A stretch of 43,175 bases of DNA from an uncultured Phycisphaerales bacterium (GTDB lineage: Bacteria > Planctomycetota > Phycisphaerae > UBA1845): contig CBDUZO010000027.1 in NCBI GenBank assembly GCA_965371725.1, positions 1 to 43,175 on the forward strand. Reading direction: 5' to 3'. Below are positions 5,948-37,097 of the stretch, in pieces. The notes under the pieces are model-generated. The model did not search any database and was not told the origin of the DNA. It was given only the letters and a program-made list of their open reading frames with translations. The number at the start of each line of letters is the position of its first letter. Within the stretch, counting starts at the first letter, position 1. The position numbers and the translations under genes were made by a program.

Positions 5948-6380
5948 CGGGCCCGCGGCGTGAGCGGTTGGACTCCCGGTCACAGGGCGTCCCCGGCCCG
6001 CCCCGCACGGGAAGCCGACGGCGTTGGGCGTCCCGGGCTCAGCGGATTGGGCCACGGTCCAGGGCGCGATCCTTTGGCCCGGCGGCGGTCGGATGCGGCC
6101 CGAAATACAGGTACGGTCCGCGATGCTGGTGCTCCGGCGAGTCGCTACGTTGACGCCGCGCCACCCTTCCCTATACTGATTTCGACTGACAAACGGCTGC
6201 GACACGGATGCTCGCACCGGCCGATACGGGTTGAGCCGGGCGTGATGCGCCCAATGCGGGGCCTCTACCGCCGGCGGTTGAACCTTCGACTATGGAATCC
6301 CGACCCACGGAGCGGGCGACGGGTGGTGCCCGCGCCGCTCGAACGTGGGTTTTCCCTGTTTCTACGCGCGGGAGGAATCG

Positions 6381-8642
6381 ATGCAAACAAGTGGATCCTA
6401 TTCACGCGTGCGATGCGTGATGATCGCCCTGGTTCTGATCGGCCTGCTCGGTTGGTGGCCCACACCGGCCGCGAAGGCTCAGGATGATTCCGCCTCCGGT
6501 ACGACGATCGCCGACAACGCGACCGTCGAATCGCTGTTCGTCGACTTCTTGCACTACGCCCGGTTGGGGCGGTTTGCGATGGCCGACGCGTACGCCCGCG
6601 CCCTGCTGACGCATCCCGACCTGGACCCCGTCGAGGTGCTCGATCTGGCAAGCCGGGACGCCAAGGCCGTCCAGACGCTCATGATCATCATCGAGAACTC
6701 GTCAATCGGGGAGAACGCCGCGCGGGTACTCGAGCTGATCGAGCAAGGTGAGATCGAGAAGCGCAAATCGCCGGACCGGATTCAGGCCAATATCAAGATG
6801 CTGGCGGGTGACCCGCAGCAGGAGTACCGTGCGATCCGGCACTTGGCTGAGTCCGGCGAGTATGCCATTCCACCGATCATCGCAACACTGCTGGATCCTG
6901 AGCGTCGGGACATCACGCCGCGTGTGATCACCGCCCTTCCAAAAATCGGCAAGGCGGCTGTCACGCCCCTGGCCACGGCGCTTTCCGTGCGGGACGATGA
7001 TGTCCGATTAAACCTGATCCACGCCCTCGGCGGGCTCGGCTACCCTCAGGCGATTCCGCACCTGCGAAAAGCCATCGCCAACGCGGACGCGCCCACCGAG
7101 ACGAAGGCCGCGGCGACTCAGGCCATTCAGCGGATCGAAGCATTCAACGGTCGGACATTCCCCGGTTCGCCCGACGAGCTGTTCTTCCGCCTCGCCGAGA
7201 AGTACTACAACGAAGACGCCTCGGTCCGGGCTGACCCCCGTCTCGACAAGGCAAACGTGTGGTATTGGGATGACACGGCGCAGGCACTGACGGCGACGGT
7301 CGTGGCCCGGCCCATCTTCGGGCCGGTGATGGCCATGCGTTGCTGTGAGGAGGCGTTGCTGCTTCGGGATGATAACGCCCAGGCGATTGCGTTATGGCTT
7401 GCAGCCAACATCCGACGTGAAGGCCGCCTCGGCATGAACGTCGAGAGCGGTGACCCGGATGAGACCGGCGATCCCGACGCCACCAGGCCGTCCGTTTTTC
7501 CAAGATCACTTTACTTCACGCTCGCCGCCGGGCCGCGCTATGCTCACCTGGTGCTCGAACGGGCCGTGGCCGGACGCGACGCGGCGGTTGCGCTCGGCGC
7601 GATCGAGGCGTTGCGGATCACGGCCGGCGAATCGTCACTTGTCGGTACTGAGGATTACAAGCAACCCCTGGTTGAGGCGCTGAGCTTCCCTGATTTACTC
7701 GTGCGGATTCGTGCGGCGCTTGCCCTTGGGGCGGCGCTTCCGAAAACGGACTTCGCCGATTCGCAGTTCGTCACGCCGGTGCTTGCCAAGGCCGTAACAC
7801 TTACCGGCCGCGAGCAAGTGCTCGTGGTCGACGGCGACAAGAGCAATCTCAACCGCGTGATGAATGTGATGCGCGAGGGCGGGCGAGATGTGATCGGTGA
7901 CGCCAACTTCTATCGTGCGCTGGAGCGGGCGCGGACCGAGTTTCACGGGCTGACCGCGCTCTTCGTGTCCGCCGGCATCAGCGAACCGGCGATTGCCCAG
8001 GCCTTGTCACAGTTCCGCGGCGAATTCACGTATGCCCGCACACCGGTCGTGCTTCTGGTCGGGCCGCAGCACGAGTTGCTTGCCGACCAACTTGCATCCG
8101 GCGACGAGTGTGTCGAGCCGGTCAACGCGAGTGCCGACGGTGCGGCGCTCGAAGCGGCGCTCGAGCGGGTTCGCGGGCAGAGCGGTCAGGCGCCGCTCGA
8201 CACGCGTCTGGCTTCGTCGCTGGCCCTGCAAGCGACAAGGACGCTACGGAATATCGCGGTGGACGGTCGAACCGTCTACGACCTGAGCGTCGCGGAGCCT
8301 GCCCTGATCGCCGCGATGTCGTCCGATGACGAGGAGCTCCAGATCGCCGCCGCCTCGGTCCTCGCGCTAGGGCGAACCGCAGGGGCTCAGCAGAGCATTG
8401 CGAGGATCATGCTCGATGCAGGTCAGTCGAAGTCACTCCGTGTGGCTTTGTTCAATTCGCTGGCGGAGTCCGCCAAGCGTAATGGAAACTTGCTGGAGGA
8501 GCGGGCACTGGCGGAACTGGTCGACATTGCGCACAACGAACCCGATCTGACCATTCGCACCGCCGCCGGCGAGGCGTTGGGCGCGCTGAACCTCGCAACC
8601 AGCAAGGCCAGTGAGATCATCCGCAGCTACTACGGCGGGTAG
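6381..8642 (+). CDS. Secreted HEAT/PBS-lyase-like repeat protein (hypothetical)
   Basis: GGGAGG SD before ATG 6381. N-terminal signal-peptide-like hydrophobic stretch (VMIALVLIGLLGWWPTPAAKAQ). Multiple HEAT-like repeats (IPPIIATLLDPERRDITPRVITALPKIGKAAVTPLATALS...). Confidence 0.65.
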   Translation: MQTSGSYSRVRCVMIALVLIGLLGWWPTPAAKAQDDSASGTTIADNATVESLFVDFLHYARLGRFAMADAYARALLTHPDLDPVEVLDLASRDAKAVQTLMIIIENSSIGENAARVLELIEQGEIEKRKSPDRIQANIKMLAGDPQQEYRAIRHLAESGEYAIPPIIATLLDPERRDITPRVITALPKIGKAAVTPLATALSVRDDDVRLNLIHALGGLGYPQAIPHLRKAIANADAPTETKAAATQAIQRIEAFNGRTFPGSPDELFFRLAEKYYNEDASVRADPRLDKANVWYWDDTAQALTATVVARPIFGPVMAMRCCEEALLLRDDNAQAIALWLAANIRREGRLGMNVESGDPDETGDPDATRPSVFPRSLYFTLAAGPRYAHLVLERAVAGRDAAVALGAIEALRITAGESSLVGTEDYKQPLVEALSFPDLLVRIRAALALGAALPKTDFADSQFVTPVLAKAVTLTGREQVLVVDGDKSNLNRVMNVMREGGRDVIGDANFYRALERARTEFHGLTALFVSAGISEPAIAQALSQFRGEFTYARTPVVLLVGPQHELLADQLASGDECVEPVNASADGAALEAALERVRGQSGQAPLDTRLASSLALQATRTLRNIAVDGRTVYDLSVAEPALIAAMSSDDEELQIAAASVLALGRTAGAQQSIARIMLDAGQSKSLRVALFNSLAESAKRNGNLLEERALAELVDIAHNEPDLTIRTAAGEALGALNLATSKASEIIRSYYGG

Positions 8643-9667: not shown

Positions 9668-10111
9668 TTACATGACCCATCGGTCCGGCCTTGCCTGCTC
9701 GGCTTTCCGGCCGGATCGGATCTCAGCGAACGAGCAGAACTCCACGCCGATCTCGTGGGTCATCCCCTCCAGGTGCCGGCAACGCCGCACGATGCACTCT
9801 TTGACGACTGGGTCACCCGTCGGGGTGCGTACCGGTAGCTCGATCGTCACGAGCGTGCCCACCGGGATCACGTAATTATGCAGGAAAGCCATGCCATGCT
9901 GTGAGACGTTCCTGGTCCAGACGCGATGCGTGGTGGCCCTGCTGCCAGCTATTAGCGGTGCGACAATGATCGCAAGCCCACGCGACGCGCGACGCTCGGA
10001 GCGCCGCCTGCAATCAGGCGCCTCCTGCACTCCGGCATCCAACGCGTTGAGGAGCTGCTCCATTTGCTCCTTGGTCAACCTGGTTCGGGTGTCTGCGTTT
10101 GCCCCCGACAT
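9668..10111 (-). CDS. PilZ domain protein (c-di-GMP binding)
   Basis: RRSERRASR (RxxxR) and NVSQHGMAF (D/NxSxxG) PilZ signatures. Start taken at internal Met MSGANADT; the ORF extends to 10249. Confidence 0.55.
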   Translation of the reverse strand: MSGANADTRTRLTKEQMEQLLNALDAGVQEAPDCRRRSERRASRGLAIIVAPLIAGSRATTHRVWTRNVSQHGMAFLHNYVIPVGTLVTIELPVRTPTGDPVVKECIVRRCRHLEGMTHEIGVEFCSFAEIRSGRKAEQARPDRWVM

Positions 10112-10532
10112 GCAAACGACTCCGATCTCTTGGTATGGGCGGGGGGCGACGAAGCACACAGCCCCACTGCCCCCGCTGCCGCGGTTAAAGTCACACCGGC
10201 TCGCCACGTTTGGCAGGACTCGGCGGAGTACTTCAGCTTCGTGTGTCATCGGATTCGACCGGGAATCGGATAAACTTGAAACTCCAACTGGATGGATAAA
10301 AATGTGGCGTACTCGTTACATCCGCCCCCATCGCGCGAAAGCCTCGCTTGCTATGGGCGGACCACTCCCGATCACAGTTCGCTTATCGGGCCATTAGCTC
10401 GCCTCAGCCAGGGCACCGGAACATGCCCGCGTCCCGCGTTATGGGGCGATATATCTCGATTGCCTCTCGTGCGAGCAACCCGCGCGACGGCACAAGACAC
10501 TGGAGCAAACTCTGCTTTTGTGTAGCGACCGA

Positions 10533-10574
10533 CCCCCCTCTTTCCCCCCTTGTCAAGGGGGGATGAAAGGGGGG
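10533..10574. terminator. Long imperfect C6/G6-run hairpin 28 nt downstream of the top6A stop
   Basis: CCCCCCTCTTTCCCCCC-TTGTCAA-GGGGGGATGAAAGGGGGG. Inner C6/G6 arms pair perfectly; outer arms pair with an internal loop. No U-tract follows. Confidence 0.3.
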
Positions 10575-10601
10575 TTCCGCTACACGATTCCCGAAAACGC
10601 T

Positions 10602-11777
10602 CTAATCCAACCACTGTTTCTTGTCGCGCAGCTTCATGGGGGCGTATTGTTCGGTGAGGTAGCTGAGGTCCTTGCTGATCATGGCCTCGACTTCCATCTT
10701 AAAGCCGTTCGAGAGCATCTTCTTGATCTCTCGTTGCCACGGTCGCTTGGCTGCAAACCAGGGATAGTTGGCGATCTGCTTGGCGCGTTTGACATCGTTC
10801 GCATCGAGCGCGATCTTGACATCATCGCTCATGTCGCACCGATCGTAGTCGAAGCTCGAGACGCCGATGAACTTGGCATCGGGGACAGCCATCCGCCTGG
10901 ATTCATAGGCCAGGTTGATCGAGCCATGCTTGATGACGGAGTAGATGTAATATCCCCACGGGTCGTTATCGAGCAGGACGAAGACGGGCAGCTTCAATTC
11001 CTCGTGCATCCGCCTCAGCAATCGCCGCATCCCGCGAGCCGGCTGCCCGCCGCCGTGCGAGATGATGCAGTTGTGTGTCTGCCAGAAGCGATCCTCATGA
11101 AAGCGCCGCCAGACGGTGTCTTTTTCGACGTGCAGGATGAACTTGGCCGAGCACTTCTTGAATTGAATCACATCGGCTTCGACGATACTCGGCACGGCGT
11201 ATCCGGCGCTGCCCATCGCCGAGCAATCGAGCGTGCTCCCGTCGTCGACGAGCGTGATCGGCCCGACCATGTTCCCGCGGTTGCTGGCGAAGACGTGAAG
11301 CTGCTCACGGAGCGAGTCAATAGCGACTTCCAGGTCCTCGATGATCGGGTCGGACTCGCTCTGGTCGTCGAAGGTTTTCTCGTTGGTTCCCTTGATCGTA
11401 TGCTTGGCGAGATAGTAGATCTGACGGATGCTCGCGGTCTTGCCCATCTCGATGAGTTCTTTGCACTTCGACGCGACGAGCATCGTCTGCATGAACCGCT
11501 TGGCCTGACCGTAGTTGAAGAAGTTGCGCGTCTGCTTGCCGTCTCCCATTTCGACGTGGCGCGTGTGTTCGTTGTAGGAAACATTACTCAGCGAGCGAGT
11601 GGGGATGAGCACAGCCGGGTCCTGCTTTCGGTCGGCCATCGTCACGATGGACCTGGCCAACTCCTCCAGCCTCGGCCCGGCAGCGCCGTGACCGTCTCTC
11701 GGCGATCGGCGGGGTTTGGATCGTGCTGTTTTCTTCCCCGTAGCTTTCTTTTGGGTCGCTTTGATCTTCTTAGCCAT
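10602..11777 (-). CDS. top6A: DNA topoisomerase VI subunit A (Spo11/Top6A family)
   Basis: Catalytic-tyrosine motif RQIYY in the CAP/winged-helix domain. Toprim domain with HVEKDTVW and acidic DNDPWG motif. Length (391 aa) and domain order match archaeal Top6A. Has a lysine-rich N-terminal extension (MAKKIKATQKKATGKKTARSKPRR). Confidence 0.85.
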   Translation of the reverse strand: MAKKIKATQKKATGKKTARSKPRRSPRDGHGAAGPRLEELARSIVTMADRKQDPAVLIPTRSLSNVSYNEHTRHVEMGDGKQTRNFFNYGQAKRFMQTMLVASKCKELIEMGKTASIRQIYYLAKHTIKGTNEKTFDDQSESDPIIEDLEVAIDSLREQLHVFASNRGNMVGPITLVDDGSTLDCSAMGSAGYAVPSIVEADVIQFKKCSAKFILHVEKDTVWRRFHEDRFWQTHNCIISHGGGQPARGMRRLLRRMHEELKLPVFVLLDNDPWGYYIYSVIKHGSINLAYESRRMAVPDAKFIGVSSFDYDRCDMSDDVKIALDANDVKRAKQIANYPWFAAKRPWQREIKKMLSNGFKMEVEAMISKDLSYLTEQYAPMKLRDKKQWLD

Positions 11778-11855
11778 TGCGCCGCCTTCTTCCCTTCTGA
11801 GCCTTCCTAACGAGCCGCGGACATAAACCCGCGCGGACTGAAGTCCGCGGCCCTC

Positions 11856-13619
11856 TTACTTCCTGCGTTTCTTCCTACCCTTCCTGGTCTTCACTTTGGC
11901 GCGTTTGGGTTTTCTCCTGGTAGCCTGGGGTTCCGGGTCGGTGAAGAGGGCTTGCGGGCTTGGACGGGGTTCATCCTGCTCGACCACGATCGTGTCCGCC
12001 AGACCCAGGTCGTTGCCCGGGCGCCCTTTCTTGATTACCTTGCCGTGCTCGTCGAACTCGACGTCGGCTTGCGCGGTGTAGACCTTCGACAGGTCAATCA
12101 ATGATCTGCGGAAGTCATCCTTGTTGATCCGCGTGATGGCGTGCGTCGCGTTGACCACCTCGTCGATATAGCGCGTGAAGACATCGCGCCGCTTGCTGTG
12201 CGCCACCTTCTTGCGTTTGCGCCGAAGCAACATGCCCAACCGCCGGCTGCACTCGGCGATCCCAAGCCTGACTTCCTTGCGTATCTCGTCGTAATCGGCG
12301 ACGGCCTCCTTGCCCTCCGAGATGAACGGGACCCACACACTGGCCATGTGGATGAAGATGACCATCGGAGCCGTCGGCAAGGAGCCGCCCGACTGCGAGA
12401 TGCCATAATTGTTCCACTTCGTATCCACGACCGCCTTGAACATAGCGCAGGAACTCTGTTGATAGAGCAGCGGCACACGGTTGGCAAAGCGGATGACCCG
12501 GGCCTGCCGATGGCCCTTGCCGTTTTCATCACCGTCGCGATGATCCGAACCAAGCTCACCGCCGTAGGCCAACCCGACCTCGATTTGGAAGGGATTTCCA
12601 CGATAGACACTCGGCGGGCGCGTGCTGGCGGTGTAGAACTCCGCTTTGATGCCCTTGAGCAACCCGGTCAGGATTGCCTCCGCGCCCATCGGGGCGAGGC
12701 AGTTGGTCGACGGCGCCTTGAGCTTCGTCGCCTGAAGGACGTTGTACAGTCGCTCCGCCACCTGCGGCGTTACGGAGCTGACCCACGTGACCGCCGTAAT
12801 GCCAACCTCTTGGCACACTCTCTTCGCCACCGTGCCGCTGACGCGCGAGAACTCACCACTGAGAAACGCCCCGACTTTCTTGGCTTTGGTCTCCTTGAGC
12901 ATCTTCATCAGCGTACCCAGCTCGATGCCGTAGGGGTGCGGTTTGATCTCCGTCGTTTCCTTGGGCAACGTCTCCGTACCTCGTGGATGCTCGACGGTCT
13001 CGGCACCGGGCGGGTGATAGAGGAAGCGGGCATGCGGGTTGGCGATCGCCGTCAGTTCGAGATACTCGTCGACACTCTGGCGGCCCTTGTTGTGGCTGGC
13101 TTCCAACTCGATCGTCACTTCCGTACCGTGAGGCCAGTCAACCTCGACCACCTCCTCCGCGATGATGTCGGGGCGATTTTTCCTGGTATCGATGGCCAGC
13201 TTGTACATGTGTGCCTGTGAGCGGCTGGAGGTTCGACTGATGATGCGGATTGGTTTGCCCGTGGTGATCAGCCCATACATGCCGGCTGCACTGATTCCGA
13301 TTCCCTGCTGGCCACGGGACATCTTGAGGCGGTGGAACTTGGACCCGTAAAGCAGCTTGCCGAAGACGGGGGGTATCTGGCTCTTGACGATTCCCGGCCC
13401 GTTGTCATGGACGGACACGCTGAACCGGTCCTGGCCAGTCTGTCGGACTGTGATCTCGAGGTCGGGGAGGATGCCGGCTTCCTCGCAAGCGTCAAGACTG
13501 TTGTCGACCGCCTCCTTGACCGTGGTGAGCAGAGCCTTTCGCTTGTTGTCAAAGCCGAGAAGATGGCGATTCTTGGCAAAAAATTCCGAAACGGATATCT
13601 CGCGTTGCTGCTTGGCCAT
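11856..13619 (-). CDS. top6B: DNA topoisomerase VI subunit B (GHKL ATPase, Top6B)
   Basis: Bergerat-fold N-box EAVDNSLDA and G1-box DNGPGI. N-terminal SVSEFFAKNRHLLGF matches the canonical Top6B start. Transducer domain present, with a basic C-terminal tail RRKPKRAKVKTRKGRKKRRK. The ORF stays open upstream to 13817, so the true start may be 13619 (MAKQQ), 13760 or 13817. Confidence 0.85.
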   Translation of the reverse strand: MAKQQREISVSEFFAKNRHLLGFDNKRKALLTTVKEAVDNSLDACEEAGILPDLEITVRQTGQDRFSVSVHDNGPGIVKSQIPPVFGKLLYGSKFHRLKMSRGQQGIGISAAGMYGLITTGKPIRIISRTSSRSQAHMYKLAIDTRKNRPDIIAEEVVEVDWPHGTEVTIELEASHNKGRQSVDEYLELTAIANPHARFLYHPPGAETVEHPRGTETLPKETTEIKPHPYGIELGTLMKMLKETKAKKVGAFLSGEFSRVSGTVAKRVCQEVGITAVTWVSSVTPQVAERLYNVLQATKLKAPSTNCLAPMGAEAILTGLLKGIKAEFYTASTRPPSVYRGNPFQIEVGLAYGGELGSDHRDGDENGKGHRQARVIRFANRVPLLYQQSSCAMFKAVVDTKWNNYGISQSGGSLPTAPMVIFIHMASVWVPFISEGKEAVADYDEIRKEVRLGIAECSRRLGMLLRRKRKKVAHSKRRDVFTRYIDEVVNATHAITRINKDDFRRSLIDLSKVYTAQADVEFDEHGKVIKKGRPGNDLGLADTIVVEQDEPRPSPQALFTDPEPQATRRKPKRAKVKTRKGRKKRRK

Positions 13620-13849
13620 CGACTCAGCCGTGGTCCGGCCGCGCGCGGGAGTGGCGCGCGTGGCTCCCGGAATGGGAGGCGACGGCTTCCGGGTCGCTAA
13701 TCGACGGCTTGATGGCTTCTTTTCCGGCACGTCTGTGTCCAACTCCGGCGGGGGGAACATGAGGGCCAATTGGCCCTCCGGTGATGACGCTACTGTGGCG
13801 GGGGGTTCGGTTGCCATCCGTGGCTCTCCGGCAATACCCGGGTGCTCCC

Positions 13850-13940
13850 TGGAACAAGTTCTTTTTTGATGTAGCGTCCGAATCCCGAAGTCTCCCGAAG
13901 ATTCCTGGCCGCCGGACGCTACGAGACCACTGAAAGCGCT
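13850..13940 (+). repeat. Copy A of a ~90-bp intergenic hairpin repeat family
   Basis: Nearly identical to 21490..21580 and to the reverse complement of 29352..29441. Contains a 10-bp inverted repeat, GTAGCGTCCG...CGGACGCTAC, flanking a conserved core. Confidence 0.8.
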
Positions 13941-14123
13941 TCAGAACGAGCCCATCTTAGCAACGCTGCAACGTCCTTCAACAGTGACATCGCGGGACTT
14001 CGTCCGGACGCGTGTCGGCGGGCGGGCTTTGGCGCGATCAGGGCACACAGTCCACCCAGGCGACCGCCGAACACATCGCCCCAACGCGCTCGGGACACGG
14101 CCCGACAAAACACTCCCGCAGGA

Positions 14124-14152
14124 CTGGCGGTCGAGTAGTTTCCTGGTATAAT
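14124..14152 (+). promoter_or_regulatory. Putative dnaA promoter with an extended -10 (TGGTATAAT)
   Basis: Perfect TATAAT preceded by TGn, 130 nt upstream of the dnaA ATG in an otherwise GC-rich region. The -35 element (CTGGCG) is weak. Confidence 0.4.
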
Positions 14153-14284
14153 CAACCCCTGCGCCACCCAGCATGGATGGCGCTCATAACCCCTTGTGTC
14201 GCATGAGTTTATGGCTCTTGCTGGCGGACCTTTCACGATTCAAGGTTCGCGATGCTACGCGACTCCTGTAGTCCGGCACTGAGC

Positions 14285-15601
14285 ATGGCAACCAACCTTC
14301 AAACGCGCTGGGATGATATTCTCGCTCAGGTCCGCCTGAACCAACCGCACCTTGTCCGAGGCTGGTTCACCGACATCGAGTTGATGGGCGTGGACGGGGG
14401 CGTACTGGTAATTCGAGCGCGCAACGGCGCCCAGAAGCGGTACCTCCAGCAGCACTGCCGTTCGGCGTTCGTGGAGGCTTCCCAGGCTGCCACCGGCCGT
14501 CTGATCACTGTCGAGTTCGAGGCGGTGGACGATCAGGATGATGCGCCCGCGCCCGACCCTTCGTTTCCCGCGGCCTGGGAGGAGCTGTCCGTCAACCCGG
14601 ATTATACCTTCGACAACTTCGTAACCGGCCCCTGCAACCGCCTCGCTCACGCCGCGGCGCTCGCCATCGCAGACGAACCGGGTCGAGCCTACAATCCCTT
14701 CTTTGTCTATGGTACGGTGGGTTTAGGGAAGACCCACCTGCTTCAAGCGATCTACCACGCGATCCGCGAGCGGAAGCCGGGGGTAAAGTGTCTTTACCTT
14801 TCGTGTGAGACCTTCATCAACCACTTCATCGAGGCCGTCGAGAGCGGGGCGCTGCACCAGTTCCGCTATCGCTACCGCCATGTTGACCTGCTGGTCATCG
14901 ATGATATCCAGTTCCTCGCCGAGCGCGAGCGAAGCCAGGAGGAGTTCTTTCACACGTTCAACACGCTTCACCAATCGCAGCGGCAGATCATCCTATCGGC
15001 TGACTGTTCGCCATCGGAGATTCCAAGCCTGGAAGAGCGCCTGGTCAGCCGCTTCGGCTCCGGCCTGGTGGCCCTGCTGGATCGCCCGTGCTACGAGACC
15101 CGTATGGCCATCCTTCGCAAGAAGGCAAAGCTGCGCTGTATCGAGGTTCCGGAGGACGTGATTGCCTTCGCGGCGAACCGGGTTAATGCGAACAACCGTG
15201 AGCTGGAAGGCGCCTTGATCAAGATTGACGCACTAAGCCAGACGCAATCGGGCGTCATCACGCTCGATCTGGCCCGCGAAGCGCTGGGCACGCCGACCAG
15301 CCAGCCGGTCAAGATCCCCGTAATCCTGGAGGTGGTCGCGCGACGGTTTGACCTGAAGGTATCCGATCTCCAGGGCAAGCGGCGCTCGAAGTCCATCACA
15401 CACCCGCGTCACGTGTGCATGTACCTAGCCCGAAAGCTCACCGCACAGAGCCTCGAGGAGATCGGGGGCTACTTCGGTGGGCGCGATCACACGACGGTGC
15501 TGCACGCGAGCCGGGCGGTCACACTGGCTGCGGAGCAGGACTCGATGCTGGCGGCCACGCTTGACGAGATCACCTCGGAGGTCAAGAATGTGCGGTATTA
15601 G
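14285..15601 (+). CDS. dnaA: Chromosomal replication initiator protein DnaA
   Basis: AAA+ Walker A GTVGLGKTHLL, sensor and box motifs (RELEGALIKI), and a C-terminal DNA-binding domain (KSITHPRHVCMYLARKLT). Confidence 0.95.
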   Translation: MATNLQTRWDDILAQVRLNQPHLVRGWFTDIELMGVDGGVLVIRARNGAQKRYLQQHCRSAFVEASQAATGRLITVEFEAVDDQDDAPAPDPSFPAAWEELSVNPDYTFDNFVTGPCNRLAHAAALAIADEPGRAYNPFFVYGTVGLGKTHLLQAIYHAIRERKPGVKCLYLSCETFINHFIEAVESGALHQFRYRYRHVDLLVIDDIQFLAERERSQEEFFHTFNTLHQSQRQIILSADCSPSEIPSLEERLVSRFGSGLVALLDRPCYETRMAILRKKAKLRCIEVPEDVIAFAANRVNANNRELEGALIKIDALSQTQSGVITLDLAREALGTPTSQPVKIPVILEVVARRFDLKVSDLQGKRRSKSITHPRHVCMYLARKLTAQSLEEIGGYFGGRDHTTVLHASRAVTLAAEQDSMLAATLDEITSEVKNVRY

Positions 15602-15896: not shown

Positions 15897-17003
15897 ATGA
15901 AACTTCGATTCAACCGACAAGAGATGGCGGATGCTCTCTCGGCTTTATGTCTGGTGGCAGCTGCACGTACCACGAAGGAAATCCTGAAGTGTGTTCGGGT
16001 GGAAGCCCAAGCCGACGTGCTGTTGTTGGCGGCCACGGATCTGGAGTTGAGCTTGCGCTGCGCGATCGCGCAGGTCGAGGTTGATGATCCCGGCGAAACG
16101 CTGGTGGTGGCTGATACGCTGGCGAAGATCGTGCGGGAGTGCACGGATGAAGTGCTCACCCTGGACACCGACGAGAGCATGCTGCACATTCGTGGCGCTG
16201 GAAGTCACTTTCAAATCGTCACGCAGGACGCGGCCGAGTTCCCACCGGTGCCCGTGATGGAGGGCGACCCCGGTTTCACGATCGAGGACGGCCAGCTTAC
16301 CCGGTTGATTGAGTGGACCGCGTTCGCGGCTGCAAGAGAGAGTACGCGCTATGCGATCAACGGTGTGCTGTGGGAGCTTGAGGGTGAGAAGCTGACAATG
16401 AGCGCAACCGATGGGCGCCGCTTGTCCGTCGGCAGGGCGCAGGTCCAAATCGGGGATTCGAACTCCGCCACCAGCGCGATCGTTCCGGGCAAGGCCCTTT
16501 CCGTTATCAGTCGGCTTTCCGTCGCGGATGACGCGATGGTCGGCGTGAAGATCACGGGCAATCAGTTGCTGCTTACCGTTGGCGGATCGCTGGTGGGGAC
16601 ATCGCTCCTGGAAGGTCGGTTCCCGAAGTACCAGGACGTGATTCCGACGGATTGTGACCGGAAGGCTCGCTTGAACTCTCTGGAGTTTCTTGGGGCGCTG
16701 AAACAGGCGGCGTTGTTGACCAACGAGGAGTCCAAGGGTGTCCGTCTGGCGTTTACCGAGGGGGTGCTCACCCTGTCAAGCCGCGCACCCGAGCAGGGAG
16801 AGGCTACGATCTCGATCCCCGCTGAGTACTCGGGTGAGCCCGTGGAGATCGGGTTTAATCCGGTCTTTCTGTTGGATATGTTACGTGTGGTCCGCACGGA
16901 TGAGGTCACAATCGAGCTCAAGGACGCGAACCGCCCCGGTGTGGTCCGGGTGGACGGTGATTTTGTCTATGTCGTGATGCCGGTCAGTCTTTCGTCGGCA
17001 TAG
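15897..17003 (+). CDS. dnaN: DNA polymerase III beta sliding clamp
   Basis: Three-domain beta-clamp. N-terminus MKLRFNRQEMADALSALCLVAAART is typical for DnaN, and it directly follows dnaA. Confidence 0.95.
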   Translation: MKLRFNRQEMADALSALCLVAAARTTKEILKCVRVEAQADVLLLAATDLELSLRCAIAQVEVDDPGETLVVADTLAKIVRECTDEVLTLDTDESMLHIRGAGSHFQIVTQDAAEFPPVPVMEGDPGFTIEDGQLTRLIEWTAFAAARESTRYAINGVLWELEGEKLTMSATDGRRLSVGRAQVQIGDSNSATSAIVPGKALSVISRLSVADDAMVGVKITGNQLLLTVGGSLVGTSLLEGRFPKYQDVIPTDCDRKARLNSLEFLGALKQAALLTNEESKGVRLAFTEGVLTLSSRAPEQGEATISIPAEYSGEPVEIGFNPVFLLDMLRVVRTDEVTIELKDANRPGVVRVDGDFVYVVMPVSLSSA

Positions 17004-17448: not shown

Positions 17449-20037
<2,589 letters not shown>

Positions 20038-32730: not shown

Positions 32731-32801
32731 TCCCGACGCCTGGAATCGAACCAGGGTCACCTGGTCCACAGCCAGGTGTTCTGCCGCTAAACTACGTCGG
32801 G
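32731..32801 (-). tRNA. tRNA-His(GTG)
   Basis: Cloverleaf read from the reverse complement. Acceptor CCCGACG/CGTCGGG, anticodon loop CTGTGGA, T-loop GGTTCGATTCC, discriminator A73, no encoded G-1. Confidence 0.8.
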
Positions 32802-32835
32802 GCAGCAAGACGGACAAGGCCCGGTCGTTCAGCAA

Positions 32836-32907
32836 TGTGCGGAGGTGGATTCGAACCACCGGCGCTCGGCTCTTCAGGCCGACGCTCTACCACTGAGCTA
32901 TCCGCAC
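32836..32907 (-). tRNA. tRNA-Phe(GAA)
   Basis: Acceptor GTGCGGA/TCCGCAC, D-arm TAGCTCAGTGGTAGAGC, anticodon loop CTGAAGA, T-loop GGTTCGAATCC. Confidence 0.85.
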
Positions 32908-33008
32908 GCAAACGGAAGACGGTGGACACGATCCACAAGCCCGCGGGCTCCGCCCGCTTTCAAGGCAAGGGCCGCCCCAAACGGCGATTTCATCTTCCAA
33001 GCTCACGA

Positions 33009-33079
33009 TAGGGACGAGGGGAATTGAACCCCTGACTCGAGCTTGAAGGGCTCGCGTGCTACCACTACACCACGCCCCC
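33009..33079 (-). tRNA. tRNA-Glu(TTC)-like with unusual anticodon loop CCTTCAA
   Basis: Canonical D and T arms, and an anticodon stem CGAGC/GCTCG. Position 33 is C instead of U, and the acceptor stem has two G-U pairs. Confidence 0.5.
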
Positions 33080-33146
33080 ACAATGGAAGGATGAAGCATG
33101 AACACAGGTTCATTCGTCCGCGCATCAGCCTGTCCTCCTGGCCAAA

Positions 33147-33216
33147 CGACCCGTGGGGGAGTTGAACCCCGGTACGACCGTGACAGGGTCGCGTGTTTCC
33201 GCTACACCAACGGGCC
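33147..33216 (-). tRNA. tRNA-Asp(GTC)
   Basis: Acceptor GGCCCGT/ACGGGTC, anticodon stem CGACC/GGTCG with loop CTGTCAC. Slightly irregular variable-loop/T-stem junction; 70 nt. Confidence 0.65.
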
Positions 33217-33220
33217 ACAC

Positions 33221-33294
33221 TCAGGGCGGGTGGGCTCGAACCACCGACCTCTCCCGTCCGAGGGGAGCGACCTGCCAGACTGGCCTACGCCCTG
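33221..33294 (-). tRNA. tRNA-Pro(CGG)
   Basis: Acceptor CAGGGCG/CGCCCTG, anticodon stem CTCCC/GGGAG, loop CTCGGAC. Confidence 0.85.
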
Positions 33295-33303
33295 TAATTC
33301 AAC

Positions 33304-33376
33304 TCAGGGTAGGAGGATTCGAACCTCCGGCCTCGCGGTCCCAAGCCGCGCGCTCTGCCTACTGAGCTACACCCTG
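33304..33376 (-). tRNA. tRNA-Pro(TGG)
   Basis: Acceptor CAGGGTG/TACCCTG, anticodon stem CGCGG/CCGCG, loop CTTGGGA, T-loop GGTTCGAATCC. Confidence 0.85.
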
Positions 33377-33426
33377 CCGATTTGATGCCTTCATCCTTCT
33401 GCTTTCATCCTTCATCCTTGTTGATG

Positions 33427-33499
33427 AGACTGGGACCGGATTCGAACCGGCAATCTGCGGAGCTGCGATCCGCCGCCTTACCAGTTTGGCTACCCAGTC
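33427..33499 (-). tRNA. tRNA-Cys(GCA)-like with non-canonical anticodon loop TCGCAGC (possible pseudogene)
   Basis: Perfect acceptor GACTGGG/CCCAGTC and T-arm. Anticodon stem GCGGA/TCCGC, but the loop has C33 and G37. Confidence 0.45.
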
Positions 33500-34051
33500 A
33501 GCGCAACAAAAAAACCGGACAACCCATCGGATCGCCCGGCTTGCTGATGCCTACTTCTCGTGTCAGAACCTACGCACGCAGCCTCCCCGGGCGATCCGTT
33601 GGATCGCTTTCGTGCTCACATGAGCAAAATCGGGTTGGCCAGGTTACGTTCAACATCGTGCTTATAATATACACGCCAACCATGGCTTGGTCAAGTGACT
33701 TTTGTACGACTTTGCCTTTTCCCTGCGCCGCCGACCTGCGTCCGAGGTGATAAAGGTCGCGGAGGTCTCGGCCCCTCTACCGAGTGAGCCGAAGACGCTA
33801 CGTTCAGGCGTGGCAGAGCTTCACGGTTCGGTATCCTACCCGGACCTCGTACTCGACTGTTGCTTCGCTGAGGATTCCCCTGGGGTTTGGCGTGATCACG
33901 TAGTGACCAAGTTTCTTGAACTTTCTCCTTGACTTGGCGTTATAGTGAGGTATGTTTAGTAGTTCAGTTAGTCTCTAGCGACAGAAGGAATCGCAACGTG
34001 CAAAGGTTCGACCGACATTGGCATCCCGCGGTGGCCAACCCCATGACACAT

Positions 34052-34133
34052 GGGGGCGGAACCGCTCTGGGAAGCGGGTCGGTTTCCAAAGCCGATGCCT
34101 TCGCGCTGGGGAGTTCGATTCTCCACGCCCCTG
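34052..34133 (+). pseudogene. tRNA-like element (Trp CCA-like anticodon loop TTCCAAA) with aberrant geometry
   Basis: 7-bp acceptor GGGGGCG/CGCCCCT, D-arm CCGC-TCTGGGAA-GCGG, T-loop GTTCGATTC. An extra nucleotide lies between acceptor and D-stem, the variable region is 11-13 nt, and the T-stem is 4 bp. 82 nt. Confidence 0.3.
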
Positions 34134-34525
34134 TACTACTTTACGCAACGATAGGTCAAGGCAGGATGTGCCTGAACTTGCCGGTCGTCGCCGCCAAGTA
34201 GCCCAGCATCGCTCCGAGTTTTAAAGCGTTTAGGCTGTTTGGCGGCGAATGAGCGCCTGTACTGTGCGTGCACATACGGCGGGTGATACCGCTGCAGTCT
34301 GTGTGCGCGCACGTGTATGGAATGATGGAGAATCAGTCTTCCGGAAGAAAGGCTGACAAGCCTTGCGCCGGAGGTGCGCGCGTGAGCATAACAGTCGGTC
34401 CATTGTAACGTGACCGCTGCAGCTCCTGTATTCGTGTGGAGGTGGGCGGTCGAGGGATCTTCACTGATAAGACGGATCGGTCGCCGCAGGAGATATGTAG
34501 CTTGCCCTATCGCCTATCGAACGAA

Positions 34526-34598
34526 GCGGCGGTAGCCCAACGGCAGAGGCATCGGACTTAAATTCCGAGCAGTGCGGGTTCGAATCCCGCCCGCCGCA
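34526..34598 (+). tRNA. Class-I tRNA with anticodon TAA (leucine UUA-type anticodon on a short-variable-loop body); isotype uncertain
   Basis: GCGGCGG-TA-GCCC-AACGGCA-GAGGC-A-TCGGA-CTTAAAT-TCCGA-GCAGT-GCGGG-TTCGAAT-CCCGC-CCGCCGC-A. 73 nt, 5-nt variable loop, A73. Confidence 0.7.
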
Positions 34599-34604
34599 GC
34601 AAGA

Positions 34605-34677
34605 GGCCAAGTAGCCCAACGGCAGAGGCAGACGGTTCAGAACCGTCTCAGTGTAGGTTCGAATCCTACCTTGGCCA
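34605..34677 (+). tRNA. Class-I tRNA with anticodon CAG (leucine CUG-type anticodon on a short-variable-loop body); isotype uncertain
   Basis: GGCCAAG-TA-GCCC-AACGGCA-GAGGC-A-GACGG-TTCAGAA-CCGTC-TCAGT-GTAGG-TTCGAAT-CCTAC-CTTGGCC-A. The D-arm is identical to the neighbouring TAA tRNA. Confidence 0.7.
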
Positions 34678-34688
34678 TTTGGCGCCAG

Positions 34689-34769
34689 GCGCTCGTGGCG
34701 AAAGGGAAGACGCACCGCCTTGAGTGGGCGGCGGGGAGACCCGTGAAGGTTCGAATCCTTCCGAGCGCA
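34689..34769 (+). tRNA. tRNA-Leu(GAG), class II with long variable arm
   Basis: Acceptor GCGCTCG/CGAGCGC, anticodon stem CCGCC/GGCGG with loop TTGAGTG, 13-nt variable arm CGGGGAGACCCGT, T-loop GGTTCGAATCC. 81 nt. Confidence 0.85.
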
Positions 34770-34888
34770 GTGCGGGATAGAGCGGTTGTGAGCTCGTCGG
34801 TTTCATGATAGCGGATTCCGAATCCGTGTAGCGATCGATGTCACAGAACGCCCGGGCGCGATGACCGATTGACGGCCACGTGAAAAAG

Positions 34889-34934
34889 AGCTTGCTCTAG
34901 CCGGAGGTCGAGGGTTCGAATCCCTCTCCCGCTA
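34889..34934 (+). pseudogene. tRNA 3'-half remnant (T-arm GAGGG-TTCGAAT-CCCTC plus acceptor 3' strand TCCCGCTA) without a matching 5' half
   Basis: Canonical T-arm and acceptor 3' strand are present, but no complementary 5' acceptor strand, D-arm or anticodon arm lies upstream. Confidence 0.3.
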
Positions 34935-34957
34935 TTCGTGGCAACGTGACCAGAGTG

Positions 34958-35028
34958 GTCGTCGTGGTGTAGCGGCAGCACATGACCTTGCCATGGTCAT
35001 AGCGCGGGTTCGAGTCCCGCCGACGACT
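34958..35028 (+). tRNA. tRNA-Gly(GCC)
   Basis: Acceptor GTCGTCG/CGACGAC, anticodon stem TGACC/GGTCA with loop TTGCCAT, T-loop GGTTCGAGTCC. Confidence 0.85.
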
Positions 35029-35122
35029 TGACTGGCGACGTGGAGGTAGGGTTCGCGCTTGACGACCACGGACAGCCGCGCGTGTATAGCAAGCAGGTGC
35101 GCGAGCGAGCACCACACAAGCT

Positions 35123-35195
35123 GCCGGCGTAGTTCAATGGGTAGAACGCCGCTCTTGTATGGCGGAGGCTGTGGGATCGTGGCCCACCGCCGGCT
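35123..35195 (+). tRNA. tRNA-Thr(TGT)
   Basis: Acceptor GCCGGCG/CGCCGGC, anticodon stem CCGCT/GGCGG with loop CTTGTAT. The T-loop is ATCGTGG (A54 instead of T). Confidence 0.75.
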
Positions 35196-35200
35196 GTGAT

Positions 35201-35271
35201 GTCGCTGTGGTGTAGCGGGAACACACCAGGCTTCCAACCTGGGATCGAGGGTTCAATCCCCTCCGGCGACT
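35201..35271 (+). tRNA. tRNA-Gly(TCC)
   Basis: Acceptor GTCGCTG/CGGCGAC, anticodon stem CCAGG/CCTGG with loop CTTCCAA, T-loop GGTTCAATCC. Confidence 0.85.
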
Positions 35272-35276
35272 TGTGT

Positions 35277-35349
35277 GCTGACGTAGCTCAATCGGCAGAG
35301 CGGCTGCCCCGTAAGCAGCAGGTTGCAGGATCGTTGCCTGCCGTCAGCT
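35277..35349 (+). tRNA. tRNA-Thr(CGT) with C33 in the anticodon loop
   Basis: Acceptor GCTGACG/CGTCAGC, anticodon stem GCTGC/GCAGC with loop CCCGTAA, T-arm GCAGG-ATCGTTG-CCTGC. Confidence 0.65.
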
Positions 35350-35361
35350 TTGGACTCGCGT

Positions 35362-35433
35362 GGGCCGTTAGCTCAGCGGTAGAGCGGAACGCTTATAACG
35401 TTCAGGCGGTAGGTTCGACTCCTACACGGCCCA
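35362..35433 (+). tRNA. tRNA with anticodon TAT (would read AUA; tRNA-Ile(UAU)-like)
   Basis: Acceptor GGGCCGT/ACGGCCC, D-arm TAGCTCAGCGGTAGAGC, anticodon stem GAACG/CGTTC with loop CTTATAA, T-loop GGTTCGACTCC. Confidence 0.7.
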
Positions 35434-35455
35434 GACAACAGAAGGAGCAGTGAAG

Positions 35456-35539
35456 ATGAAACGTATCGCCAAATGTAAGCGAACGGATGGTTTGTCTACA
35501 CGGGTCGGTAGCTTAACCGGCAAAGCGCGCGGCTCTTAA
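35456..35539 (+). CDS. 27-aa ORF (MKRIAKCKRTDGLSTRVGSLTGKARGS) with a strong Shine-Dalgarno, inside the tRNA array
   Basis: AAGGAG at 35442..35447, an 8-nt spacer, then ATG. It overlaps the 5' part of tRNA-Lys(CTT). It may be fortuitous or a gene remnant. Confidence 0.15.
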   Translation: MKRIAKCKRTDGLSTRVGSLTGKARGS

Positions 35540-35574
35540 CCGCGGAGCTAAGGGTTCGACTCCCTTCCGACCCA
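35502..35574 (+). tRNA. tRNA-Lys(CTT)
   Basis: Acceptor GGGTCGG/CCGACCC, anticodon stem CGCGG/CCGCG with loop CTCTTAA, T-arm AAGGG-TTCGACT-CCCTT. Confidence 0.85.
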
Positions 35575-35582
35575 TTCGTCGC

Positions 35583-35655
35583 GGGCCGGAAGCTCAATTG
35601 GCCGAGCAGCGGGCTTTTAACCCGCAGGTTGTGGGTTCAACTCCCACCCGGCCTA
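35583..35655 (+). tRNA. tRNA-Lys(TTT)
   Basis: Acceptor GGGCCGG/CCGGCCT, anticodon stem GCGGG/CCCGC with loop CTTTTAA, T-arm GTGGG-TTCAACT-CCCAC. Confidence 0.85.
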
Positions 35656-35669
35656 CTGAAAACCAACGC

Positions 35670-35743
35670 GGGGCCGTAGCCTAATCCGGGAAGGCACCTG
35701 GTTTGCACCCAGGATATTACTGGTTCGAGTCCAGTCGGCTCCA
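35670..35743 (+). tRNA. tRNA-Ala(TGC)
   Basis: Acceptor GGGGCCG/CGGCTCC containing a G3-U70 wobble pair (a G3-U70 pair is the classical alanine identity element, although its presence here rests on a single read of the stem), anticodon stem CCTGG/CCAGG with loop TTTGCAC. Confidence 0.85.
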
Positions 35744-35760
35744 TAGGAGTGACGGTCGAA

Positions 35761-35833
35761 AGGTGCGTAGCTCAGTTGGCCAGAGCAGCTTCTTACAAAG
35801 AGAAGATCGCTGGTTCGATTCCAGCCTCGCCTA
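35761..35833 (+). tRNA. tRNA-like gene with ambiguous anticodon arm (ACA with a weak stem, or CAA with A33)
   Basis: Canonical D-arm TAGCTCAGTTGGCCAGAGC and T-arm GCTGG-TTCGATT-CCAGC. The acceptor has one C-U mismatch. The anticodon region CTTCTTACAAAGAGAAG folds only in non-standard ways. Confidence 0.4.
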
Positions 35834-35840
35834 GTCGGAA

Positions 35841-35913
35841 AGGCTCGAAGCTCAATGGGATGAGCACCTGTCTACGAAACAGGAGGCTGAAGGTTCGAAT
35901 CCTTCCGGGCCTA
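35841..35913 (+). tRNA. tRNA-Arg(ACG)
   Basis: Acceptor AGGCTCG/CGGGCCT, anticodon stem CCTGT/ACAGG with loop CTACGAA, T-loop GGTTCGAATCC. Confidence 0.85.
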
Positions 35914-35919
35914 TGGGAA

Positions 35920-35992
35920 GGGCCGGTGGCGCAACGGACAGCGCGGGAGCCTTCTAAGCTCACGGTTGTAGGTTCGACTCCTACTCGGCCCG
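35920..35992 (+). tRNA. tRNA-Arg(TCT)
   Basis: Acceptor GGGCCGG/TCGGCCC, anticodon loop CTTCTAA, T-arm GTAGG-TTCGACT-CCTAC. Confidence 0.8.
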
Positions 35993-35993
35993 T

Positions 35994-36065
35994 CGCCCCG
36001 TAGCTCAAAGGAAGAGCGCCGGCGTCCGAAGCCGGGGGCTGCAGGTTCGAGTCCTGCCGGGGTGG
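35994..36065 (+). tRNA. tRNA-Arg(CCG)
   Basis: Acceptor CGCCCCG/CGGGGTG, anticodon stem CCGGC/GCCGG with loop GTCCGAA, T-loop GGTTCGAGTCC. Confidence 0.75.
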
Positions 36066-36070
36066 TCGGA

Positions 36071-36143
36071 GCAGCGGTAGCCCAACGGCAGAGGCAGCCG
36101 GCTCAAACCCGGCCAAGTGTAGGTTCGACTCCTACCCGCTGTA
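36071..36143 (+). tRNA. Class-I tRNA with anticodon CAA (leucine UUG-type anticodon on a short-variable-loop body); paralog of the 34526 and 34605 tRNAs
   Basis: GCAGCGG-TA-GCCC-AACGGCA-GAGGC-A-GCCGG-CTCAAAC-CCGGC-CAAGT-GTAGG-TTCGACT-CCTAC-CCGCTGT-A. The same D-arm TAGCCCAACGGCAGAGGCA as the other two. Confidence 0.7.
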
Positions 36144-36161
36144 GTGTGAGGCAGTGGGCAC

Positions 36162-36233
36162 GCGCCTGTAGCTCAGTGGTGGAGCGCACCCCTGATAAGG
36201 GTGAGGCCGATGGTTCAATCCCATCCGGGCGCA
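36162..36233 (+). tRNA. tRNA-Ile(GAT)
   Basis: Acceptor GCGCCTG/CGGGCGC, anticodon stem CACCC/GGGTG with loop CTGATAA, T-loop GGTTCAATCC. Confidence 0.85.
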
Positions 36234-36295
36234 TGAGGCGACGGTGCGATTTGTATGAGGGTCTGCCTGAGGAAGCATTTGCCGGATGAGCAGGA

Positions 36296-36367
36296 AGTCG
36301 GATAGCTCAGTGGCAGAGCAGGCGTTTCATGAGCGCTGTGTCGGTGGTTCGATTCCACCTCCGACTA
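36296..36367 (+). tRNA. tRNA-Met(CAT), elongator type (or tRNA-Ile2 if C34 is lysidinylated)
   Basis: Paired 1-72 (A-T), acceptor AGTCGGA/TCCGACT, anticodon loop TTCATGA, T-loop GGTTCGATTCC. Confidence 0.75.
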
Positions 36368-36372
36368 TGAGC

Positions 36373-36444
36373 GGGGCGGAAGCTCAACGGATGAGCGGCG
36401 GCTTCCTAAGCCGACGGCTGCGGGTTCGAGTCCTGCGCGCCCCA
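36373..36444 (+). tRNA. tRNA-Arg(CCT)
   Basis: Anticodon loop TTCCTAA, T-loop GGTTCGAGTCC. The acceptor GGGGCGG/GCGCCCC has one mismatch at position 7-66. Confidence 0.7.
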
Positions 36445-36482
36445 GATGGAGTGCTCGACAGCTTGCCCCATATGCCCGGTAG

Positions 36483-36554
36483 TGGCAAGTAGCTCAATGG
36501 CGGAGCGCCTCACTGTTAATGAGGAGGCTGTGGGTTCGAGTCCCACCTTGCCAG
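36483..36554 (+). tRNA. tRNA-Asn(GTT)
   Basis: Acceptor TGGCAAG/CTTGCCA, anticodon stem CCTCA/TGAGG with loop CTGTTAA, T-loop GGTTCGAGTCC. Confidence 0.85.
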
Positions 36555-37014: not shown

Positions 37015-37097
37015 GTTCTTGGATGCTCGAGGCACGAGCGCAGACTGAAGAAGTCTGTCACTTGATGGTGACGCAGGTTCGATTCCTGCCCAGACTA
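37015..37097 (+). pseudogene. tRNA-like pseudogene (class-II-like: D-arm, anticodon-like hairpin, hairpin variable arm, T-arm) lacking a pairing acceptor stem
   Basis: GCTCG-AGGCA-CGAGC D-arm-like hairpin, CAGAC-TGAAGAA-GTCTG, variable hairpin GTCAC-TTGATG-GTGAC, T-arm GCAGG-TTCGATT-CCTGC. The terminal segments do not pair. Confidence 0.25.

Follow-up and report, generated by a model that had tools for sequence, protein, structure and literature searches.

What is topoisomerase VI (Topo VI) for in a bacterium, and which partner would direct it to its DNA substrate? Bacterial Topo VI is a recognised puzzle, and the question is raised here by a 43,175-nt stretch of DNA from an uncultured Phycisphaerales bacterium (GenBank assembly GCA_965371725.1, contig CBDUZO010000027.1; the whole stretch is hereafter called the window), in which the minus-strand genes top6B (11856..13817, 653 amino acids [aa]) and top6A (10602..11777, 391 aa) are separated by a spacer of 78 nt. 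Judged from sequence, the pair is a complete Topo VI with intact catalytic motifs. Both subunits carry terminal tails, and the most informative part of these tails, absent from the initial annotation of the locus, is a conserved QLxLxF island near the N terminus of Top6B. This island is a candidate binding motif for the beta sliding clamp (DnaN) and supplies a concrete partner hypothesis for the enzyme.

In the window protein the island reads QLALMF (aa 16 to 21; 13755..13772, minus strand). Across a 67-sequence alignment of Top6B, Q16 is invariant and L17, L19 and F21 are each conserved at 90% or more, while every other column in aa 2 to 58 is under 50% consensus. The loose pattern Q-[LM]-x-[LF]-x-[FY] was found in 93 of 106 homologues with the extension (median position, residue 15), and the motif logo over these 93 contains Q in 93, L in 87, a variable residue, L in 85, a variable residue and F in 87; the strict pattern was found in 90 of the 106, against 0.02 expected from composition-preserving shuffles. 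At species level, 33 of 39 loci carry the motif 7 to 19 residues past a plausible in-frame start Met (taken as the nearest Met in the upstream sequence), and five of the other six carry QxxFxF, QxxLxF or QxxLxM variants. The motif codons vary synonymously among loci (CAG/CAA; CTN/TTR; TTT/TTC), which points to selection on the peptide and to the ATG at 13817 as the true start. The hexapeptide form of the bacterial clamp-binding motif is QLxLx[LF], and QLALMF fits it as a predicted ligand. The same peptide also fits the published bacterial beta-clamp-binding consensus, QL(S/D)LF (PMC9690074). It sits in a flexible terminal segment (predicted local distance difference test [pLDDT] score of <50 over aa 1 to 64) amid unconserved flanks. 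A reading of the motif as a PCNA-interacting peptide (PIP) box was rejected, as the aromatic residue is at +5 and not at +6 or +7. Our literature search turned up no description of Topo VI with a clamp-binding motif, and no topoisomerase appears in the published list of bacterial clamp partners (PMC9690074); as far as could be found, clamp-binding-type motifs on bacterial Top6B tails are undescribed.

A second conserved island, PSPQALFTDPEP (aa 619 to 630; 11928..11963, minus strand), is located just before the C-terminal basic tail of Top6B and within the disordered region, and follows the family pattern PxPxxLF[DE]. Position L624 is at least 90% conserved. Homologues with [LMF][FL] no more than four residues after a P in the tail, a looser form of the pattern, number 97 of 120, and the matches listed read PxPxxLF[DE]. 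The island resembles the peptide GQASLFADPEP at the N terminus of another Top6B (P0182), and from its sequence it may be a weak second clamp-binding motif.

To evaluate the distribution of such motifs over other Top6B lineages, a full-library search was clustered at 50%, giving 150 representatives (named taxa among them: Polyangiaceae, Krumholzibacteriia and Planctomycetota), and tails were delimited by BLAST-defined core limits. None of the 82 archaeal-like representatives (short N-termini, complete ends) had a QLxL-type motif in the N tail or in the last 14 residues. Among 22 representatives with long N tails, five match the pattern and several more carry looser variants, such as QASLF in P0182. 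One of the five, from a Polyangiaceae metagenome-assembled genome (MAG), ends in "...RKRRPSDGQLDLVK", and a search with this protein returned 120 Myxococcota-type Top6B (names: Polyangiaceae, Myxococcaceae, Deltaproteobacteria and Pendulispora). The pattern QLxL[IVL] was present at the end of 75 of these 120, lying 0 to 2 residues from the C terminus in 73 of the 75 and at most 4 in the others, whereas 300 shuffles gave 0; it is preceded by KK-G-E and a long basic tail, and five further Myxococcota-type proteins stop at "...QLSL". No C-terminal QLxL[IVL] was found in the Phycisphaerae Top6B set. Two bacterial clades thus carry similar putative docking motifs on unrelated basic, disordered tails, one at the N terminus and the other at the C terminus, and the archaeal-like sequences are without them. 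Three of the archaeal-like representatives (P0247, P0196 and P0149) end instead in PIP-box-like peptides (QNTLDSYFG, QTDLGEWGDE and QVGLADFDDEF, respectively), and loose PIP matches over all Top6B tails number 8 against 2.0 expected. These ends hint that some archaeal Top6B may bind PCNA, which would parallel, in archaea, the clamp link proposed here for bacteria. With respect to the putative receptor, the window DnaN is 34% identical to the E. coli beta clamp. It keeps most residues of the peptide pocket seen in E. coli beta-peptide structures, namely T172, G174, R176, L177, P242, V247, N320, V360, V361, M362, P363 and L366.

The tails themselves are extensive. The N-terminal extension of Top6B (aa 1 to 62; 13632..13817, minus strand) is predicted to be disordered and is absent from archaeal Top6B, and in the AlphaFold2 (AF2) model aa 1 to 64 and 598 to 653 both have pLDDT values below 50 and no secondary structure. 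The C-terminal basic tail of Top6B, RRKPKRAKVKTRKGRKKRRK (aa 634 to 653; 11859..11918, minus strand), has 15 Lys or Arg (K/R) in 20 residues, and the N-terminal basic tail of Top6A, MAKKIKATQKKATGKKTARSKPRR (aa 1 to 24; 11706..11777, minus strand), belongs to a segment with 11 K/R in the first 25 aa. Both are family traits: the last 30 residues hold 9 to 17 K/R in most of 120 Top6B homologues, and most of 80 related top6A loci begin with "MAKK..." followed by a K/R-rich stretch. The initial annotation had described basic tails on both subunits as foreign to the canonical archaeal enzymes, and alignment with the solved ones agrees, the first aligned residues being Top6B residue 63 (M. mazei residue 5) and Top6A residue 26 (M. 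mazei residue 9). Structures of M. mazei Topo VI bound to DNA show the Top6B stalk meeting both the winged-helix domain of Top6A and the arms of the DNA at its C-terminal end (PMC13040014). The basic tails of the two subunits are therefore expected to exit side by side near the A-B junction, next to the arms of the gate segment (G-segment). They probably add non-specific DNA affinity, and they may offset both the absent Ig-like C-terminal domain and the basic residues lost from two DNA-sensing elements (KGRQ for KGRR and WNNY for WKxY; see below).

That the two open reading frames are Top6B and Top6A, as proposed in the initial annotation, was borne out by profile searches, in which Pfam and NCBIfam assigned both to Topo VI families, by alignment with solved structures and by the predicted fold of the core. 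Top6A (5Y-CAP/winged-helix plus Toprim) matches TP6A_N (E = 1e-17), Topo_VI_alpha and TOP6A-Spo11_Toprim (E = 1e-57, full model length), and Top6B (GHKL ATPase, H2TH and transducer plus lineage-specific tails) matches HATPase_c and Topo-VIb_trans (E = 5e-53). Against the NCBIfam equivalogs, Top6A scored 536 bits with NF003333 (cutoff 465) and under the cutoffs of the remaining five Top6A subfamily models, and Top6B scored 659 bits with NF003218 (cutoff 274) and 521 bits with TIGR01052 (cutoff 381). Top6B aa 63 to 554 align with M. mazei Top6B residues 5 to 486 (PDB 2q2e_B, E = 2e-143), unbroken over that range and with H2TH included; Top6A aligns with S. shibatae Top6A (PDB 2zbk_A, E = 1e-76). 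The AF2 model of Top6B (67 homologues as input) has helices at 300 to 363, and its top 16 Foldseek matches are all Top6B chains. The nearest solved relative differs between the subunits, being M. mazei for Top6B (483 bits, versus 287 bits for S. shibatae) and S. shibatae for Top6A (262 bits, versus 174 bits for M. mazei); unequal evolutionary rates or separate subunit origins could be the cause. It is also worth noting that five of the six NCBI Top6A equivalog models (NF003332, NF003333, NF003334, NF003336 and NF003337) are named "DNA topoisomerase IV subunit A", a name easily confused with ParC, which could lead automated surveys to overlook Topo VI or to report a false Topo IV.

The catalytic motifs quoted in the initial annotation (EAVDNSLDA, DNGPGI, RQIYY and the Toprim DxD) were all located, and the catalytic residues proved intact on full alignment with the solved archaeal structures. 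All of the following are on the minus strand. The Bergerat-fold boxes of Top6B (13296..13514) comprise the N box EAVDNSLDA (aa 102 to 110), G1 DNGPGI (aa 138 to 143) and G2 GQQGIG (aa 169 to 174), and the columns of the N box (as KEAVDNSLDA), G1 and G2 are invariant in the 67-sequence alignment. The transducer switch lysine lies in SEGKEA (aa 500 to 505; 12303..12320), which aligns with SESKDA of M. mazei and SAGKES of S. shibatae. In Top6A, the active-site tyrosine falls within RQIYY (aa 118 to 122; 11412..11426), the surrounding SIRQIYY (aa 116 to 122) aligning with IRDLYY of S. shibatae and LREAYY of M. jannaschii; the Toprim metal site is DNDPWG (aa 270 to 275, with D270 and D272; 10953..10970), and the Toprim glutamate is E218 in HVEKD (aa 216 to 220; 11118..11132). 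The T2BI box reads KMEVEAM (aa 360 to 366; 10680..10700), a Topo VI-type pattern; in Topo VI this box is (R/K)xExx(A/S), while Topo VIII has RVELNAM and Mini-A has WELDAL (PMC7671362). The DNA-sensing elements defined in M. mazei, the loop KGRR together with the motif Stalk/WKxY (PMC5922973), are each partly kept, with one basic residue lost apiece: the window Top6B has KGRQ in place of KGRR, and WNNY (family consensus KWNNY) in place of the WKQY of M. mazei.

Bacterial Topo VI has been known since the 2000s (PMC2647321); the enzyme is archaeal in origin, and its bacterial copies have been ascribed to horizontal transfer (PMC2647321, PMC11302465). Allen and Maxwell (2024) listed 17 bacterial families with Topo VI, among them two of Phycisphaerae (Anaerohalosphaeraceae and Sedimentisphaeraceae) and three of Planctomycetia (Pirellulaceae, Lacipirellulaceae and Thermoguttaceae), and found gyrase present and Topo IV absent in the Planctomycetota families (PMC11302465). 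The same authors cite unpublished data in which M. mazei Topo VI complemented an E. coli parE(ts) mutant (PMC11302465). Consistent with this distribution, and with the bacterial host assumed in the initial annotation, a scan of one genome per species found Top6A relatives in 165 GTDB species, and the best 80 of these 165 are all Planctomycetota, mostly Phycisphaerae MAGs, at 64 to 89% identity. The best 120 Top6B relatives are 66 to 81% identical to the window protein, and the named entries among them are "DNA topoisomerase VI subunit B" of Phycisphaerae or Planctomycetota, in which NCBI annotates Topo VI routinely; the closest archaeal structure is only ~44% identical. The GC content of top6B and top6A (0.58 to 0.61) is similar to that of the flanking sequence. 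By these sequence measures the gene pair is a resident, vertically inherited one with no recent transfer, and its wider Phycisphaerae group is large (at least 165 species) and for the most part uncultured. As an enzyme it adds one more member to the published Planctomycetota Topo VI group and is not in itself new. Genes for gyrA, parC and parE were not found within the 43-kb window. Several Top6B relatives contain inteins: P0124 (L083, 6001-8352) has a Pfam Intein_splicing match, and multi-stretch matches in proteins of 1000 to 1500 aa (P0126, P0127, P0131 and other representatives of 1000 aa or more) are further intein examples.

The pair is read divergently from a plus-strand cluster identified by Pfam as dnaA (14252..15601), dnaN (15897..17003), a DciA-family gene (PF05258; 17019..17402) and gyrB (17470..20037), across a top6B/dnaA intergenic region of 434 bp (13818..14251). 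The DciA-family gene, between dnaN and gyrB, occupies the usual recF position. A PilZ-domain gene (9668..10249) lies directly downstream of top6A. Core genes surround the pair (dnaA, dnaN, gyrB, the PilZ protein and a sugar transferase), and none of the flanking genes belongs to a mobile element. The lowest point of the cumulative GC skew is at 14 to 15 kb of the window, consistent with an origin nearby. E. coli-type DnaA boxes (TTATCCACA, ≤1 mismatch) were not found near dnaA or top6B; the single match in the window falls inside top6B and is below chance expectation. No regulatory k-mers were conserved across 18 syntenic top6B-dnaA spacers, and no sigma-70-type promoter was called. An extended -10-like sequence, TGGTATAAT, is present at 14144..14152, ~100 nt 5′ of the dnaA ATG.

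The initial annotation had drawn attention to the placement beside dnaA-dnaN-gyrB. This placement is real in the window but not universal in the clade: of 56 informative related loci, 17 have top6B-top6A divergent from dnaA-dnaN-(dciA)-gyrB, so that origin-proximal placement is recurrent without being fixed. Loci with top6A apart from top6B include L012, L014, L024 and L027. At L006 (3580-4764), which has too short an upstream flank and is outside the 56, top6A comes right after gyrB, with dnaN-dciA-gyrB-top6A on one strand. The MAG CAZZFA01 holds two separate top6B-top6A pairs (L060 and L072).

Taken together, these results make it reasonably probable that the locus encodes a functional A2B2 Topo VI, resident in Phycisphaerae, with a role as decatenase and a clamp-type docking peptide on the tail of Top6B. 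Its history would be one of ancient transfer from archaea followed by long residence in Phycisphaerae. From its sequence membership in Topo VI the enzyme would be expected to follow the standard cycle, in which a transfer segment (T-segment) is captured by the GHKL ATPase of Top6B, the G-segment is cleaved by the Top6A tyrosine and Toprim site, and the T-segment then passes through the break. Going by the literature on related families, its cellular job would be decatenation and the relaxation of positive supercoils in a lineage without Topo IV. The QLxLxF peptide of the N-terminal tail would dock on DnaN and so bring the enzyme to clamps that stay behind on newly replicated DNA, the site of precatenanes; the basic tails might hold the G-segment, and the PxPxxLF[DE] island could possibly act as a weaker second docking site. 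A replication-linked role and early gene dosage would both agree with the siting of the pair beside dnaA-dnaN-gyrB, although that siting is not obligatory. For the broader proposal, that Topo VI was rewired to the bacterial replisome after its transfer and that terminal clamp motifs (N-terminal QLxLxF in Phycisphaerae, C-terminal QLxL[IVL] in Myxococcota) tether Top6B to DnaN, we consider the chances evenly balanced.

Several observations weigh against the clamp hypothesis or limit its reach. Clamp-binding motifs are short and degenerate, so that a match to the consensus is no proof, and ~12% of Phycisphaerae homologues have no recognisable N-terminal motif. The genomic link to dnaN is loose, given that the pair is located away from dnaA in 19 of the 56 informative loci and that in another 20 top6A has no top6B in the 4 kb or more upstream or anywhere in the fetched locus. 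The changes to KGRQ and WNNY relative to M. mazei mean that details of activity may differ as well. It is possible, if less probable than clamp docking, that the window encodes an ordinary Topo VI whose tails are non-specific DNA-binding or solubility appendages and whose QLxLxF serves another function; the motif could be an N-terminal strap on the partner GHKL domain upon ATP-driven dimerisation, a site for an SMC/condensin-type partner, or a degron. GHKL ATPases dimerise using N-terminal straps, which favours the strap version, and the K/R-rich tails resemble many DNA-binding tails. Moreover, Topo IV in E. coli is recruited by MukBEF and SeqA and not by the clamp (PMC11253446), and no experimental link of any bacterial type II topoisomerase to the clamp was found in the literature. 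However, the structured strap begins near aa 63, and the linker between it and the motif is variable in length and unconserved in sequence, as one would expect for a linear motif on a tether but not for a structural element; in the AF2 monomer model the motif is not docked. A strap role at the N terminus is also hard to uphold when a QLxL-type motif occurs at the opposite terminus in Myxococcota Top6B, which it cannot explain; a portable docking peptide would be expected to look so. Sequence and terminal position both agree with the clamp-binding consensus.

Two further explanations concern the nature and the origin of the genes. Type IIB relatives such as Topo VIII and Mini-A occur on mobile elements (PMC7671362), and defence systems also contain Toprim nucleases (PMC13040014), so the pair might be a Topo VI-like DNA-breaking module (Spo11-like, a defence-type Toprim nuclease, or a mobile-element Topo VIII or Mini-A). 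We regard this as very improbable, as the pair has two subunits, the 5Y-CAP region at the N terminus of Top6A is complete, the G2 box (GxxGxG) and switch lysine are intact, the T2BI box is of Topo VI type (KMEVEAM) and not of Topo VIII type (RVELNAM), the scores exceed the NCBIfam Topo VI cutoffs, core genes lie on the flanks, and the pair is conserved in at least 165 species. Least credible of all is that the pair was transferred recently from an archaeon or is a contaminant of binning, in spite of the archaeal origin of Topo VI and the attribution of bacterial copies to horizontal transfer (PMC2647321, PMC11302465): the pair stands between a bacterial dnaA and a PilZ gene on one contig, the same synteny recurs in 17 other Planctomycetota genomes, the GC content is like that of the flanks, the 66 to 81% identity of the best 120 relatives compares with ~44% for the best archaeal structure, and the clamp motif in the tail is of bacterial type and not of PIP type.

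If the clamp hypothesis is true, no clamp-coupled type II topoisomerase or decatenase would have been described in bacteria before this one, and the clients of the clamp would gain a topoisomerase. The case would show how an enzyme acquired horizontally from archaea was connected to the bacterial replisome, and offer an alternative to the guidance of Topo IV by MukBEF and SeqA for sending decatenation to replicated DNA. An earlier review had speculated that Topo IV and Topo VI seldom swap between domains because domain-specific partners are needed (PMC2647321); docking on DnaN would give a direct answer to why transfers need such partners, and to what bacterial Topo VI is for. If it is false, the locus just adds to a group already published.

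Other features of the window bear less directly on the enzyme. A hairpin with a 7-bp stem, which the initial annotation had placed in the 78-nt top6B-top6A spacer, is there as described (CGCGGAC-TTCA-GTCCGCG, 11849..11832, minus strand), but its fold is not significant. The 96-nt hairpin region folds no better than shuffles (z = 0.00), a competing 11-bp stem pairs 11853-11843 with 11822-11812, and there is no T-run after the hairpin. Terminator prediction gave three calls in 10300..14400, all on the plus strand and none at the hairpin. Among relatives the gap between top6B and top6A varies from 2 bp to >2 kb and in some cases holds inserted genes; no conserved hairpin was found in it. A role of the hairpin as a regulatory element or terminator was rejected on these grounds (z of 0, competing stem, absence of a T-run, and spacer length and content not conserved). 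Elsewhere in the window, HEAT-repeat proteins are encoded at 6345..8642 (765 aa) and 39264..41762 (832 aa; at least 10 HEAT_2 repeats), and 28 tRNA genes (plus strand, 21; minus strand, 7) are packed into a dense array at 32731..37166. Four 73-nt class-I cloverleafs in this array have Leu anticodons (UAA, 34526-34598; CAG, 34605-34677; CAA, 35761-35833 and 36071-36143), but the long variable arm that a bacterial tRNA-Leu should have is missing from them, and the D-arms look Gln-like. The array also has a tRNA-Ile(UAU) and an 84-nt "Trp" called by ARAGORN alone; tRNA-Gln, -Ser, -Tyr and -Val were not called in it.

Among known systems, Topo VIII and Mini-A share Bergerat-fold, 5Y-CAP and Toprim chemistry with the window pair (PMC7671362). 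Topo VIII, however, is usually a single polypeptide (or transducer-split); it lacks the 5Y-CAP part at the N terminus, its T2BI box is RVELNAM and its context is a mobile element, and the window pair has none of these four features, with its two full subunits, TP6A_N, KMEVEAM and core-gene neighbours. Topo IV (ParC/ParE) would be the equivalent in role, decatenating DNA behind the fork and relaxing positive supercoils (PMC11302465, PMC11253446), although its A subunit is not homologous to Top6A (type IIA versus type IIB). Guidance of Topo IV in E. coli is by MukBEF and SeqA (PMC11253446), whereas the candidate guide in the window is a clamp-binding-type peptide. The bacterial Topo VI surveyed by Allen and Maxwell comes from the same phylum and class and is the same enzyme, and their study makes no mention of tails, clamp-binding motifs or linkage to dnaA (PMC11302465). 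Archaeal Topo VI (M. mazei, 2Q2E and 9O0G; S. shibatae, 2ZBK) is likewise an A2B2 gene pair with the same domain set. The M. mazei enzyme has an Ig-like C-terminal domain that the window enzyme is without, and the latter adds to the archaeal plan a 62-aa disordered N tail with QLxLxF and a C-terminal LF island plus K/R tail on Top6B, together with a K/R N tail on Top6A. Established clamp clients carry their motifs as N-terminal QLSLPL in Hda, C-terminal QLVLGL in Pol IV and QLGLF in Pol II. Top6B would resemble them in having a short Q-L-x-L-x-[LF] or QLxL[FLIV] peptide in a flexible protein terminus, and MutS, a clamp client with both N-terminal and C-terminal sites, offers a precedent (PMC9690074, PMC11253446).

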